DNA of 64,000 bases from IMG/VR virus record IMGVR_UViG_3300044684_000224, positions 14,820 through 78,819 of that record. One strand, given 5' to 3'. The notes beneath the pieces are model-generated. The model worked only from the letters and a program-made list of their open reading frames with translations, searched no databases and had not been told where the DNA came from. Shown here piece after piece: positions 4,538-18,398 of the stretch (within the stretch, counting starts at the first letter, position 1; the number at the start of each line of letters is the position of its first letter). The translations under genes were made by a program, and so were the position numbers. Source of the stretch: a virus.

Positions 4538-4582
4538 GAAACCCCCTCGCCACCACCGTGCCGCGGTGGCGAGGGGGCTTTC
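4538..4582 (+). terminator. Intrinsic-terminator-like hairpin
   Basis: GAAACCCCCTCGCCACC ... GGTGGCGAGGGGGCTTTC. Confidence 0.6.
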
Positions 4583-4976
4583 GACGTGCCTGCATGCATG
4601 CGGACCAAGAGCGGGTTTGTCGATCTTCGTTAGCGCCAATGACCTGCGATTAGGCGCAGGACCAGCGTCCTGCGCGACCGTTGGCCCGTGGCCAACGGTC
4701 AGGGCCGACGACAGGGCATGATCACGGTCGACGTGCCAGCCTTCCTGACCAGGTCATATACCGAAAGTCTAGATCAAATCGAACAGGAGCGGCATGCATC
4801 GCTAGATCGAATGACACGCGTGTAGTTCCCAAGGCGCTCACGGGATGAAGCCGTCGTTAAGCAGCGGTAGGCTACGAATCAATGAAGCCCGGGGCCGATT
4901 GCGCCGGCCCCGGGCTCATGCTCCCGCGTAGTACCCGCTACCGGGAGCGTGGTCACCCACGAAGAGAGAAAAGAGA

Positions 4977-6653: not shown

Positions 6654-6893
6654 CGGCGGGTCTCCTGCGGCTTCGGGTCGGCGGGGCGCGGCTCGGGCGC
6701 GTTCGGCGGGTTGCAGGCGCACTCCGGGCCTGCGTGGCACTGGCTGGACAGCCACCGCGGACACGCGGCGCGGCGCTGCGCCTGGGGAGTCGCTGCGCTC
6801 ATGGCCGGCTCCGATCGGGACCGGTGGGCGCGACCGTCTCGGGGTGAACAGCCGCACCCACCGGAGTAGGGGAAAGTCGAGGACTAGGCATGG

Positions 6894-7205
6894 TCAGCAC
6901 CGCCCGGATTGGGCGATCACCGACATGACGGCGTCCGCTTGCGCTTCGGTGCCGCCGTAGCGCTGCGCCAACCCGACCGGGTTGGCCAAGTAGGGGCACG
7001 CCCGCGCCAGGATTGCTTGTACCTCGCCGGGGGTGACGGTGACACCGGTGCCGACCGCTTGCGCGGTCAACGCGGCGGCGAGACGCGCGTCGCTCCACGG
7101 CGCCGGCCGCGGACGGGGATGGTCGGGGGCGGCCAGCAGGGACACGACGACCACGAGGGTGAGCGCGGCCAGGATGACCCCGACGATGCGGGCCGCGCGC
7201 ATCAC
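6894..7205 (-). CDS. Membrane-anchored or secreted hypothetical protein
   Basis: N-terminal hydrophobic helix. Confidence 0.55.
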   Translation of the reverse strand: MMRAARIVGVILAALTLVVVVSLLAAPDHPRPRPAPWSDARLAAALTAQAVGTGVTVTPGEVQAILARACPYLANPVGLAQRYGGTEAQADAVMSVIAQSGRC

Positions 7206-14188: not shown

Positions 14189-14578
14189 TCACATTGGTGT
14201 TGCGTCCCTTTTGATCTCGCACAGTTTCGCAACGATGGACTGCGCCTCGGACGGTGCCACGAGCACCGTCCGAGGCTTATTGGTTTCCTTCGGGCCGACG
14301 ATGCCGTGTTCTTCGAGTTCGTTCATCAACAGGTTGGCCATGCCGTAGCCACCGCGGAGCTTCCTTGCCAGCATGGCATGTGAACCGTACTGGGATGTTA
14401 TGACTAGCTCGGCTGCGAGTGCGATGAGAGGGGCTTCTGGTGGCGCGATCGTGGGCGTCCACCGTGCCCAGGGGTCGGCCTGCTGCCTGGATCGTCGTGG
14501 CGGTGGGGGCACGGTGGGCCGCTCGGCGATGCGGATGAGGGACGAGATGAGCGCGAGGATCGCTCTGGCCAGTTCCAT
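14189..14578 (-). CDS. Stand-alone FtsK gamma (KOPS-binding winged-helix) domain protein
   Basis: AAELVITSQYGSHAMLARKLRGGYGMANLLMNELEEHGIVGPKETNKPRTVLV matches the FtsK-gamma consensus; no motor domain. Confidence 0.85.
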   Translation of the reverse strand: MELARAILALISSLIRIAERPTVPPPPRRSRQQADPWARWTPTIAPPEAPLIALAAELVITSQYGSHAMLARKLRGGYGMANLLMNELEEHGIVGPKETNKPRTVLVAPSEAQSIVAKLCEIKRDATPM

Positions 14579-14586
14579 TGTGGCTC

Positions 14587-14991
14587 CTATCCGGTTCGCC
14601 GGCGCCGGAACGCGCGCTGTTCGTTGATCCAGTCCACGGCGTCGTTGAGGCGTTTCAGGGCCTCGTTCCGGCCGTGTTTGTCTTCCCAGAACTTGTAGAC
14701 ATCCATCAGTTCCCGCTGTTCCTCTGTGAGCGGCGGGGGCTGTTCTCGTTCCAGTGGCAGTGGGTCGCCGCCGGCAAGGACAGACTCGAACGAGCCGGGC
14801 CCTAGGCCGATCACCGGCTCCATCTGCGCGGCCTTGTGCGCCTGCGGCAGTCGTGTGCCGTCTTCGACGCCGGTCCAGGTGCCGCGGTCGACGCCCGCCT
14901 GCGCGGCCGCCGACCGGATGCTTAGTCCTCGCCGTGTGCGTTCTCGGCGCACTATCTCGGCGAGCCGTGCCCTGTGTCCCCCGACTGGCAT
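14587..14991 (-). CDS. Immunity repressor (CI-like XRE HTH)
   Basis: RERTRRGLSIRSAAAQAGVDRGTWTGVEDG; divergent from a Cro-like gene and near the integrase. Confidence 0.85.
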   Translation of the reverse strand: MPVGGHRARLAEIVRRERTRRGLSIRSAAAQAGVDRGTWTGVEDGTRLPQAHKAAQMEPVIGLGPGSFESVLAGGDPLPLEREQPPPLTEEQRELMDVYKFWEDKHGRNEALKRLNDAVDWINEQRAFRRRRTG

Positions 14992-15127
14992 GGTGGCTCC
15001 CTATTGCCCGGTTTGGTTGTGGACTCTAGTGGAACTTGGCCGCACTGTGTAACCCCTTCGCCACATGTTGACGTGTGTGGTCGAGGATGGTTGTGGAATC
15101 TGGTGGTACTTGGTAGCGTCCGGTGGC

Positions 15128-15370
15128 ATGGGACCGAATCCGCCGAATGTCGCCATCGACGGTGACGAGCTGCGGACGAGACGCAAGTTCGCGGGCTACT
15201 CGCAGATCGAACTGGCCGAGCAGGCGGAGATCACCAACCGCTACGTCAGTGAGATCGAGCGCGGCAACCGAAAGTTCGTGAGCCCCGCCGTGTTCGTCCG
15301 TCTCTGTGACGCCCTCGACATCCGACCCGACCAGCGGTGGAAGCTCGTCCGTTCGGCGGTGGCGTCGTGA
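15128..15370 (+). CDS. Cro-like XRE HTH protein
   Basis: LRTRRKFAGYSQIELAEQAEITNRYVSEIERG. Confidence 0.85.
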   Translation: MGPNPPNVAIDGDELRTRRKFAGYSQIELAEQAEITNRYVSEIERGNRKFVSPAVFVRLCDALDIRPDQRWKLVRSAVAS

Positions 15371-15639
15371 GCACCACACCCGCGCAACGCTCCGCCAACG
15401 CCTCCATCGCCGCGCACAGCATGTGGGCACGTTGCCCGGACCGGGCCAGACGTCTGCGCAACGCGCACGCCGCCCTGGAGGCCCGCATCGCCCGTGACTT
15501 CGGCATCCCGGCCGACCTGCCGCCGGCCGAGTACGCGACGCGGATCGAGTCGGCGAAGCGGGCCTACTTCGGGCGGCTGGCGCAGCGGTCGGCGAAGGCG
15601 CGGGCGGCGAAGCGGTTACGAGCGGGTGAGGCGGCATGA
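15367..15639 (+). CDS. Conserved actinophage hypothetical protein
   Basis: ASIAAHSMWA..AKRAYFGRLAQRSAKAR, a family I recognise downstream of Cro; GTGA coupling. Confidence 0.7.
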   Translation: MSTTPAQRSANASIAAHSMWARCPDRARRLRNAHAALEARIARDFGIPADLPPAEYATRIESAKRAYFGRLAQRSAKARAAKRLRAGEAA

Positions 15640-15916
15640 ACGCCCGCACCACCCCGCCCGGCATGGTCGACATCCGGCGCCGCCCCGACGAGAGCGCCGA
15701 GCAGGCCCTGACCGGTGACCCGGACGACAAGAAGTCGAAGCCGGTGGAGCAGTCGAAGCCGGCCGGGAAGGACGGACCGAAGTGACCTCGCAGCCCAGTG
15801 ACGACGAGATCTTGGACGGTCTGGCCCGGAACCTCAACCAGGGTGCTGAGCGGGCCGCTGAGGACCGGGCCACGCAGCGTGCTGCTGATGCGGTGAAGAA
15901 AGGGGGAAAGTCGTGA
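15636..15916 (+). CDS. Two tiny coupled ORFs (15636-15785 and 15782-15916)
   Basis: ATGA/GTGA overlap chain linking the Cro operon to the Cas12 gene. Confidence 0.5.
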
Positions 15917-17589
15917 GCGATTTCGATCTCAACCAGGCGGTCGCCGACGTGCCCCATTCGACCCCCCTGGCCGACTACGCAACAGTCGTCTATCAGTACG
16001 GATGCCCGCACTGGGCGGACTTTGACGACATCGCGATGGAGCAACTGCGGTTGGCTCACAACCTCCGTAACCGTCTTGTCGAGATCGAACTGGCACACGA
16101 GGCGGCGCTGGCCGCTGCTCTCGCCGAGGACCCTTCCGTTAGTGCCGCGCAGGCCGCGCTGGCGGATGCCGACCAGGCAGTGAAGGACCTGGAGGAGCGT
16201 CTGCTGCGGGAGCGGGTGACGGATCGGTCTCGCGTGGCCCGAGTTGAGACGAAGGGGGCCATCAAGGCTGCGCGTGCCGCGCGGTCGGCTGCCAAGGTGG
16301 CGCTGAAGGCTGCGAAGGCGGCTGCGCGGGCGACACAGCGGGAACGTCGTGGAGAACTCCGGGACGCCCACATGGCCGCGCTGACCCAGGCGCGTGCCGC
16401 TGCGGTTGCTGACGGGCTGTTCTGGTCGACCGCGACCGATGTGTTGGACCACCATCGGGTCGCGGCGAAGGCAGTGATCCGTAAGCGTGTCGCTGGCCAG
16501 CCGGCCCGGTTGCGGTTTCACCGCTGGGATGGGTCGGGGACCTTGACCACGCAGGTGCAGTGGCAGACGGGAGGCCCGCTGCCGTCGCCCGCCGCGCTCG
16601 CCGCCGGGTGGGGTGGGTTGGCGACGTTGTCGCCGTGCGGCGACCCAGCGGTGCGTCCCCGGGGCGCCGAGCGGTTCGGCGAGCTGGCAATGCGGGTGCG
16701 CAGCGCCGACCATGGCGGGGATCACCGGCTGGTCGTCCCTGTGATCTTGCACCGGTGGATGCCGGCGAATGCGGAGATCAAGCGTATTCAGGTGAGTCGC
16801 CGTGCGGTCGCGGGCCAGCACCGGCTGTTCGTGTCGGTGACCTGCCGTGTGCCGGCGCCGGTGCCGTCCCGGTCGAGGACGGCTGTCGCGGTTGATGTGC
16901 AGTGGCGCGGTGTCGGTGACGGCAATGTGCTGGTGGCTCGGGTGGGTGTGTCTGGCGGTCCGGTTCCTGCGCCGCCGGATGCGGTGCGCGAGTTGTGTGT
17001 GTCGCGTCCGGGTGGTGTGGACATGCACGCCAGTGCCGAGTGGCGGGCGGTCCTGGCCCGTGGTGAGCGTATCCAGTCGGTGCGTGACGAGATGCTGGAC
17101 GACCTGCGGCCCCGGCTGGTGGAGGCGCTGGCCGACGCGGCTGTTGCCGACGCGGTGGGTGTCACGGGTGCCGTGGTGGCGCGGTGGCGGTCACCGGGTC
17201 GGTTTGCGCGGTTGGCGCGCGTGTGGCCGCAGGATCATGCGCTGGCGGTGCCGCTGGAGTTGTGGCGCGCGCGGGATCGGCACCTGTGGGAGTTCCAGTC
17301 GCATGAGCGCGCCCAGATTCTGGGTCGGCGTCGCGAGGTGTACCGCTGTTTCGCGGCGTGGCTGGCGGGGCACGCGTCCGTGATCGTGGTGTCCGATGTG
17401 GATATCGCTGAGGCGCGGCGGCGGCCGGATGTGTGCCAGGACGATCCGCATGGTGCGCGTGGCGCGCGGCGTCTGGTGCAGTTCGCGGCGCCGGGGGAGT
17501 TGCGGGCGGCGATCGTGGCCGCTGCGGCTCGTCGGGGTGTTGAGGTGTTGTTCGCGTCCCAGTCAGCGACGACTGAGGTGGCGGCATGA
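15913..17589 (+). CDS. cas12m: Cas12m-like (type V-M, formerly V-U1) effector, C-terminally truncated
   Basis: Motifs shared with MmCas12m as I recall it: EQLRLAHNLRNRLV, long REC coiled coil, GLFWSTATDVLDHH, RLRFHRWDGSGT, PVILHRWMPANA, RuvC-I AVAVDVQWR, VVARWRSPGRFARLA, RuvC-II VIVVSD, FAAPGELRAAIV; adjacent to 36-bp CRISPR repeats. Confidence 0.85.
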   Translation: MSDFDLNQAVADVPHSTPLADYATVVYQYGCPHWADFDDIAMEQLRLAHNLRNRLVEIELAHEAALAAALAEDPSVSAAQAALADADQAVKDLEERLLRERVTDRSRVARVETKGAIKAARAARSAAKVALKAAKAAARATQRERRGELRDAHMAALTQARAAAVADGLFWSTATDVLDHHRVAAKAVIRKRVAGQPARLRFHRWDGSGTLTTQVQWQTGGPLPSPAALAAGWGGLATLSPCGDPAVRPRGAERFGELAMRVRSADHGGDHRLVVPVILHRWMPANAEIKRIQVSRRAVAGQHRLFVSVTCRVPAPVPSRSRTAVAVDVQWRGVGDGNVLVARVGVSGGPVPAPPDAVRELCVSRPGGVDMHASAEWRAVLARGERIQSVRDEMLDDLRPRLVEALADAAVADAVGVTGAVVARWRSPGRFARLARVWPQDHALAVPLELWRARDRHLWEFQSHERAQILGRRREVYRCFAAWLAGHASVIVVSDVDIAEARRRPDVCQDDPHGARGARRLVQFAAPGELRAAIVAAAARRGVEVLFASQSATTEVAA

Positions 17590-17703
17590 ACACATATGCC
17601 AGCGCGAAGGCTTCGTATTCGCGACAGCGACCAACTGGTCAGCTGGACGGCGATTTCGGTGAGCGTGGTGGAAATGCCAGCGCGAAGGCCTCGTATTTGC
17701 GAC
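17590..17703 (+). CRISPR. Degenerate mini-array (2 repeats, 1 spacer of 42 nt)
   Basis: 5'-eroded repeat 17590-17625 (last 30 nt have 2 mismatches) and repeat 17668-17703 (2 mismatches to consensus). Confidence 0.85.
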
Positions 17704-17737
17704 CCGTCCATGAACTGACCCACAAGCAGGAGGCGAC

Positions 17738-18241
17738 ATGAGCGTGACAGTGACAGTGCCGGACGACCCGATCTCGCACCAACTGACCGAGTTGATCCGC
17801 AAGGGCGCCACCCCGGAGGACGCGGCCACGGCCGTGCTGGAGCCCTACCAGCCGACGCCTCTCGCAGGCGAGGCGTGGCGGGTGGTGCGGGATGCGGCGT
17901 TGAAGATTTCACGGCTGGCGGCCAGGGCTGCGGAGGACCGCGCGTTCCAGCCGGCGGGGGAGCGCACCGCGCGGGAGGCACGGTTGGCGATTCCCCGGGT
18001 CCGGTTCCGGGTGGGCGATGGCACCGAGGTGGAGTGGGGTCGGGCGACTGTGACGCAGCATCAGGCACGGATCGCGTGGCAGCGCACCCAGATGGATGCG
18101 ATCGCCGTGGATATCGACCGGCACACGGGGGCGGTCGATTTGATCGAACAGCACGGGGTTTCCTGCCTGGACGACATTCCCAACTGGCCGGATTTGCTTC
18201 CTGGCGTGTTGGACGGTGCGAGCGGCTCGGTGGCGGCCTAG
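17738..18241 (+). CDS. Hypothetical protein embedded between the two CRISPR array segments
   Basis: GGAGG RBS; 167 aa; GDGTEVEWGRATVTQH..HGVSCLDDI; function not recognised. Confidence 0.75.
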   Translation: MSVTVTVPDDPISHQLTELIRKGATPEDAATAVLEPYQPTPLAGEAWRVVRDAALKISRLAARAAEDRAFQPAGERTAREARLAIPRVRFRVGDGTEVEWGRATVTQHQARIAWQRTQMDAIAVDIDRHTGAVDLIEQHGVSCLDDIPNWPDLLPGVLDGASGSVAA

Positions 18242-18398
18242 GTACTGGGGACCGCTCGCATAGGTGGGTTGATCTGGAGGTTTAAGCGCGGTGGAGATCA
18301 TGGTGACACGGGATGCGGTGCTTGCCGAGGGGTGCTCCGGGGGACCGCTCGCGTTGATCTCCGCTGCCGCAGGTCAGGGTTGCCAGAAACAGGTAGCC

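Follow-up and report, generated by a model that had tools for sequence, protein, structure and literature searches.

A putative crRNA unit within the translated cas12m operon of a phage

Introduction

Type V-M Cas12m, the known effector homologous to the one described here, has been characterized as MmCas12m2 (PDB 8HHL, PMC10442227), GoCas12m (PMC11013384) and PmCas12m (bioRxiv 10.64898/2026.03.26.714355). Pre-crRNA processing by Cas12m orthologues does not depend on RuvC (PMC11013384, PMC10442227), and the cuts made by PmCas12m fall after repeat base 2-3 and after guide base 17-18 (bioRxiv 10.64898/2026.03.26.714355). The known autoregulation of CRISPR systems operates at the level of DNA, with guides aimed at cas promoters. 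Mini-arrays associated with cas loci include CreR/CreA (bioRxiv 10.1101/2023.03.10.532045) and the crlRNAs (10.1101/2023.03.03.530964). Shmakov et al. (10.1101/2023.03.03.530964) found that repeat-like sequences are depleted in cas genes. TnpB takes its guide scaffold from its own transcript (Nety et al. 2023, PMC10278001), and viral solitary repeat units, or Racr (PMC10651486), are repeat copies outside an array.

We analyzed a phage locus in which a reading frame between cas12m and a conserved partner gene contains two repeats and a spacer. The window is a 64-kb stretch of DNA within a virus record of 93 kb that is ~81% complete. A first-pass annotation had proposed that this segment may be under dual selection as crRNA and as a translated linker, or may give a variant-repeat regulatory guide. 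A literature search, with coverage mostly outside subscription journals, found nothing on repeats within cas coding sequence or on the partner gene. Two points carry the most weight: intact repeats occur within translated mRNA across the clade, and the partner gene is conserved.

Results

The operon and its effector

A series of overlapping ORFs begins with a Cro-like gene and has cas12m in fifth place; the two-repeat unit, the partner gene and the main array come after it. The features, all on the + strand, are:

15065..15916, +, four upstream ORFs chained by overlaps: a Cro-like HTH gene, then ORFs of 90, 49 and 44 aa, leading to cas12m
15913..17589, +, cas12m, 558 aa (phmmer to MmCas12m2 8HHL, E=3e-59, residues 27-550)
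17575..17579, +, weak Shine-Dalgarno (SD) sequence GAGGT for the mini-ORF, within the last cas12m codons (anti-SD duplex -7.1 kcal/mol)
17586..17741, +, 51-codon ORF (mini-ORF), with an ATGA overlap at either end
17590..17625, +, repeat 1: degenerate in the first 6 nt (5'), with an intact 30-nt core and a stem of six Watson-Crick pairs in the fold
17626..17667, +, spacer 1, 42 nt, predicted guide 17626-17642
17668..17703, +, repeat 2, complete at 36 nt, with a single G-U wobble in its stem
17704..17737, +, 34-nt tail: predicted 17-nt second guide (17704-17720), then the partner leader with a strong SD
17728-17733, +, partner SD AGGAGG (anti-SD duplex -10.3 kcal/mol)
17738..18241, +, partner gene, 167 aa (blastp E=2e-14 against the gene that follows cas12m in relatives)
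18242..18398, +, leader-like region ahead of the main array, from sequence; similar leaders in L012, L013, L020, L024 and L038
18399..18805, +, main CRISPR array: 6 repeats, 5 spacers of 34-41 nt

L001, L030 and similar labels denote the relative Cas12m loci that we compared with the window; on the tree, these relatives are mostly actinobacterial. The first gene of the chain matches HTH_31 and HTH_3, and its members are joined by GTGA and ATGA overlaps, an arrangement that suggests a single early mRNA across the four ORFs and cas12m. Upstream (14189-14991) are a divergent CI-like HTH gene and then a stand-alone FtsK-gamma domain gene. The entire 93-kb record has only eight repeats.

The effector is C-terminally short. 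In the alignment it is without the zinc-finger/TNB region and the third RuvC motif, stopping at residue 558, before the zinc finger and the equivalent of Asp579, and this shortening is common to the whole partner-bearing Cas12m clade. The crRNA-binding His-Arg pair of the WED domain is kept, with H280/R281 aligning with His269/Arg270. Judged from the alignment, the effector is a truncated variant that would work like Cas12m.

The two repeats are intact handles

The ATG at 17586 overlaps the cas12m stop (TGA, 17587-17589), and the frame runs through both repeats to a TGA (17739-17741) that overlaps the partner ATG at 17738, as first annotated. The mini-array had also been called degenerate, which overstates its condition. 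Using a covariance model built from array repeats only, in which perfect array copies score 49.3 bits, we found that the core of repeat 1 scores 48.3 bits (E=4.5e-9) and repeat 2 scores 45.2 bits (E=2.5e-8); both copies are therefore intact handles and not decayed ones. Mapped on the Cas12m2 scaffold (PMC10442227), both keep the pseudoknot, the 6-bp stem, the G:A pair and the terminal C, and the six degenerate 5' bases of repeat 1 correspond to a disordered part of that structure. The 30-nt cores differ from the main-array repeat by the four changes reported earlier, three synonymous and one Leu>Ser. The compensatory stem change in repeat 1 is likewise present, as an A-U>G-C pair where repeat 2 has its G-U wobble. 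The intact scaffold supports reading the two-repeat unit as a crRNA unit.

A conserved partner gene and the history of the junction

The partner gene is a candidate accessory protein gene of the short Cas12m. By HMM, a homologue follows cas12m in all relatives of the C-terminally short clade with downstream sequence, and Cas12m relatives that bear the zinc finger are without it. In a reverse look-up, the three close homologues checked all sit after cas12m. The family (1133 homologues, ~170 aa) marks a well-supported Cas12m clade without the zinc finger and third RuvC motif and is present in the window, L001, L002, L009-L013, L015, L020, L024, L038, L039, L043, L044 and L050. The partner belongs to no Pfam, NCBIfam or PHROG family and has no similarity to the phage's own VIPR partner. 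Its predicted model is confident and mostly helical, with no clear match to a known fold (best Z 5.2, best TM 0.49), a result that does not establish a new fold.

Three other loci bear on the distribution of this family. L046 (400-894) has a distant homologue (P0087, E=1e-17) after a non-cas12m gene that looks RAMP/Vipr-like by eye, and ahead of a GGY-NN five-base tract; going by this one locus only, the family may serve as a VIPR accessory gene too. L021 (936-1658) has a short Cas12m with a weak match to the family (E=1e-5) upstream and not downstream. In L024 (783-1305) the partner is apparently frameshifted near its start, or there is an assembly error.

The unit was probably inserted where cas12m and the partner once overlapped. 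Of 15 relatives, 13 have the two genes overlapping or abutting, six of them with the same 4-nt ATGA/GTGA overlap (one more locus overlaps by gene calls only), and we therefore read ATG 17586 as probably a relic of the old partner start. The two-repeat unit is absent from this junction in all 15 relatives. Given the ancestral overlap and this absence, the 152-nt unit would be a lineage-specific insertion. The exact ORF is not conserved either: 14 of the 15 relatives have no repeat at all at the junction, so the frame conservation that the annotation had put up for checking is missing. The partner SD is stronger than that of the mini-ORF; the partner may need no translational coupling.

Repeats recur in translated frames of relatives

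Two other loci have repeats read through at gene junctions. In L030, a 28-codon ORF that starts with GTGA over the upstream stop and passes by ATGA into the cas12m start crosses a repeat in the window's frame. In L044/L045, a GTGA start lies over the cas12m stop and an intact repeat is read as the partner N-terminus, again in the window's frame. The translated linker proposed for the window is plausible in this form, as continuity of the reading frame only, independently repeated in L030 and L044. The joint chance of continuity in the window, L030 and L044 is ~0.07, or ~0.01 with the shared frame, figures that are post hoc (computed after the cases had been seen) and suggestive. Additionally, we noted that at L030 689-732 the ribosome-binding site and start codon of cas12m fall in the guide position of the repeat.

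Repeats also lie within genes. L001 has two in-frame repeats inside cas12m and one in the upstream gene, and in its array an overlapped start runs for 177 codons across eight repeats (P=0.016); open frames were found in 4/14 control arrays, only in those of 407 nt or less. The repeat in L009 occupies the same Cas12m loop as one of those in L001, in a different frame and with a different sequence. The L011 partner C-terminus and the L005 cas12m both end inside a repeat. Covariance-model E-values for the clear in-frame repeats (L001, L009, L011) range from 8e-9 to 5e-5; the weaker cases are L029 (E=3e-3) and L005 (E=0.4, yet matching its own array repeat). All embedded repeats are on the sense strand, and the covariance model found no significant antisense repeat in the genes carrying clear in-frame copies. 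The same frame is used in most translated cases, and the Cys/Phe-rich frame is never used. At least five independent changes on the tree are required to account for in-frame repeats.

There are counter-cases. Repeats in L015 and L042 follow a stop without an overlapped start, and in L028, with the sequence read by eye, the overlapped frame differs and soon stops. No relatives were found in the viral contig set, and a sample of 400 genomes from the L038 phylum added no locus.

Several features of the relatives were noted in passing. The in-frame repeats at L001 5700-5729 and 6322-6351, L009 1592-1621 and L029 1486-1515 are in variable Cas12m loops, and the embedded L009 copy is of the family type, unlike L009's own array type. 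L005 has two arrays with very short spacers (~9-16 nt) at 4560-4712 and 6777-7172, one upstream of cas12m and the other beginning inside the last cas12m codons. In the arrays of L011 (2229-3205) and L001 (7234-7753), the stem differs in almost every repeat yet remains paired, and the spacers are of very uneven length, the shortest being ~17 nt. Single opposite-strand repeats lie upstream of cas12m in L015 (3026-3055, -), L026 (3901-3930, -) and L028 (3830-3859, -); the L015 repeat comes after the stop codon of a repressor-like gene and has a guide that matches the partner gene at 14/17 positions, with no T-rich PAM. In the L027 array (1772-2243), two spacer positions start with the same sequence and several spacers are promoter-like (TTGACA/TAGACA motifs), hinting at promoter targeting.

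A crRNA unit carried inside the operon mRNA

We give an even chance to the reading that the insert is a crRNA unit (repeat-spacer-repeat-guide) inside the operon mRNA, tolerated since translation stays continuous across it. Its observed basis is the intact scaffold, the absence of the unit from relatives, the ancestral overlap and the recurrence of in-frame repeats. The unit would have been gained secondarily at a junction where cas12m and the partner normally overlap, and would be transcribed within the early operon mRNA. Free Cas12m would treat it as pre-crRNA, binding and cutting it to yield as many as two guides at an early stage; by analogy with its orthologues, the truncated Cas12m may process RNA. 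Cutting would split the mRNA between cas12m and the partner, and the partner would retain its own SD. Ribosomes would reinitiate at the old partner ATG and cross the insert in a translation relay, and inserts would persist only if translation stays continuous, so that there is no polarity and coupling is kept. Selection would then act on the RNA fold and frame continuity, the peptide itself being unselected. Ribosomes and Cas12m might compete for this RNA, which would put partner output under feedback; this is the weakest step.

This reading is favored by where the PmCas12m rule, carried across orthologues, would place the cuts in the window and relatives. In the window, cuts are predicted near 17591, 17642, 17669 and 17720. 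They would spare the cas12m coding sequence, free two 17-nt guides and leave the partner a 17-nt leader with its SD. Elsewhere, the same rule would have the cas12m mRNA cut in L001 and L009, L030 would lose its cas12m SD and start, and in L044 the partner start would be severed from the partner body. Counting against the embedded unit are the uncoupled cas12m/partner junctions in L011 and L013, the absence of the C-terminal region from the window Cas12m, and the 43% chance that the window alone would show continuity of some kind.

Alternative explanations

An ordinary extra mini-array is a rather unlikely alternative. The unit would add one or two guides against rival mobile elements, its ORF would be coincidental and unselected, and the partner would use its own strong SD. 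The Cas12m repeat is free of stop codons in all + frames, shuffling the spacer left the mini-ORF open in 50% of cases, and 21% of random inserts gave exact ATGA coupling. Continuity at the window locus is thus no more than expected by chance. Moreover, 24 of 50 long genes of the phage end in ATGA/GTGA anyway, and repeats directly 3' of a stop codon are common in the family (L040, L042, L033, L015). The codon score of spacer 1 is best in frames other than that of the mini-ORF, as for a captured foreign fragment. What an extra mini-array leaves unexplained is that three independent junction repeats keep translation continuous in one frame and that repeats also lie in frame inside cas12m.

Neutral or decaying debris is quite improbable. 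Repeats spread by recombination, or an array split by the partner gene, would persist without function. The unit is lineage-specific, repeat 2 resembles a hybrid of two alleles, and a 7-nt target-site-like duplication (microhomology) flanks the insert, at a borderline P=0.05 that we did not use as evidence; Shmakov et al. (10.1101/2023.03.03.530964) consider many solitary repeats spurious. However, every change spares the pseudoknot, the G:A pair and the terminal C, stem pairing is kept, and the embedded copies in relatives are fully foldable and all sense-strand.

A regulatory guide of the CreR/crlRNA kind, the second proposal of the first-pass annotation, found no target and is very improbable. 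Such a guide would send Cas12m to a promoter through partial complementarity. Known regulatory mini-arrays are likewise two-repeat units with variant repeats in a cas operon, and Cas12m represses transcription by binding, according to the literature. The search that had been suggested for spacer 17626-17667 gave no target in the phage record, IMG/VR, or the phage and plasmid collections, where matches were at chance level only, and no target was found for the second guide or the main-array spacers. In the early control region (14501-15960), the best YTN-flanked seed was 3-4 nt, and in the ~81%-complete phage record guide matches equaled those of shuffled guides. The unit has no intergenic space, no sigma-70-like site and no room for one; a promoter for it may lie inside cas12m. 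Separately, we rejected eight exact 17-nt matches to the second guide: they stop at 17-18 nt, seven are in one gene family, their 5' flanks disagree, and by our own estimate a handful is expected by chance.

The mini-ORF does not have the signature of a coding sequence. Its codon score is 0.04 bits/codon, compared to 0.18-0.30 in the flanking genes, its GC3 is 0.61 against a comparison value of 0.79-0.84, and the 51-aa peptide has no Pfam match, so that neither conservation nor coding signature marks it as a conserved small protein. One of the four core changes, A>G, is common to both copies, so the independent synonymous changes number two of three and not three of four. Neither count is significant (P=0.30 and P=0.14, respectively), and we rejected the bias as a sign of dual selection. 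The compensatory change was rejected as such a sign as well: it is a common family allele, found in array repeats of 8 of 28 relatives, and both stem alleles occur within one array in L013. A functional 51-aa peptide that constrains the repeat sequence is therefore extremely improbable, despite the three synonymous changes in four and the frame shared by most translated cases, since the bias is not significant, the peptide is not conserved and the core substitutions of the mini-array also occur in ordinary array repeats. Taken alone, the window locus is no evidence for dual coding, and the peptide is probably unimportant. Of the proposed dual selection, the crRNA role is supported by the intact scaffold, and selection on the residues is not supported.

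Discussion

The repeats inside cas12m in related phages suggest that Cas12m may cut its own messenger RNA. A broader proposal, which we hold tentatively and think somewhat doubtful, is that the clade repeatedly writes intact repeats in frame into its own mRNA, including Cas12m loops, and that guide-free Cas12m cuts its own message, giving post-transcriptional feedback and guide making free of Cas1-Cas2, both set by competition between ribosomes and Cas12m. If Cas12m does cut repeats in its own translated mRNA, this would be feedback at the RNA level, echoing TnpB ancestry, and self-cutting could explain how phage systems that have no adaptation gain guides. On the ordinary reading, the ORF would be coincidental, and interest would be confined to the partner gene. 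With a Cas12m that is naturally short (~550 aa) and a conserved partner, the clade is also relevant to compact CRISPRi tools.

The locus is like type V-M in its homologous effector, its 36-nt repeat with the same scaffold logic, its downstream array and the lack of any adaptation genes noted adjoining it. Unlike type V-M, the effector is without the zinc finger (TNB) and the three-residue RuvC site, the locus has a conserved coupled partner gene, and repeats lie inside translated operon mRNA. [quoted passage not shown]

Like CreR/CreA and the crlRNAs, the unit has two variant repeats and one spacer at a cas locus. Those mini-arrays occupy long intergenic regions and have cas promoter targets; the window unit is an ORF with no gap around it, and its spacer is not one that is partly complementary to a cas promoter beside a PAM. 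As with the viral solitary repeat units (Racr), the phage genome has repeat copies outside the array. L030 and L044, with one copy each, have solitary repeats in this sense, and the window unit, with two repeats and a spacer within a reading frame and the cognate effector in cis, is not a solitary repeat; there is no evidence that it has the anti-host-CRISPR action of Racr.

The TnpB guide made from its own mRNA is, by analogy, the nearest mechanistic precedent. In TnpB, the omega-RNA scaffold comes from the effector's own transcript and is cut by the effector, as we propose for this locus. TnpB has one 3'-terminal scaffold and RuvC-dependent processing, whereas here short repeats lie at several independent positions, and processing by the characterized Cas12m proteins is RuvC-independent.
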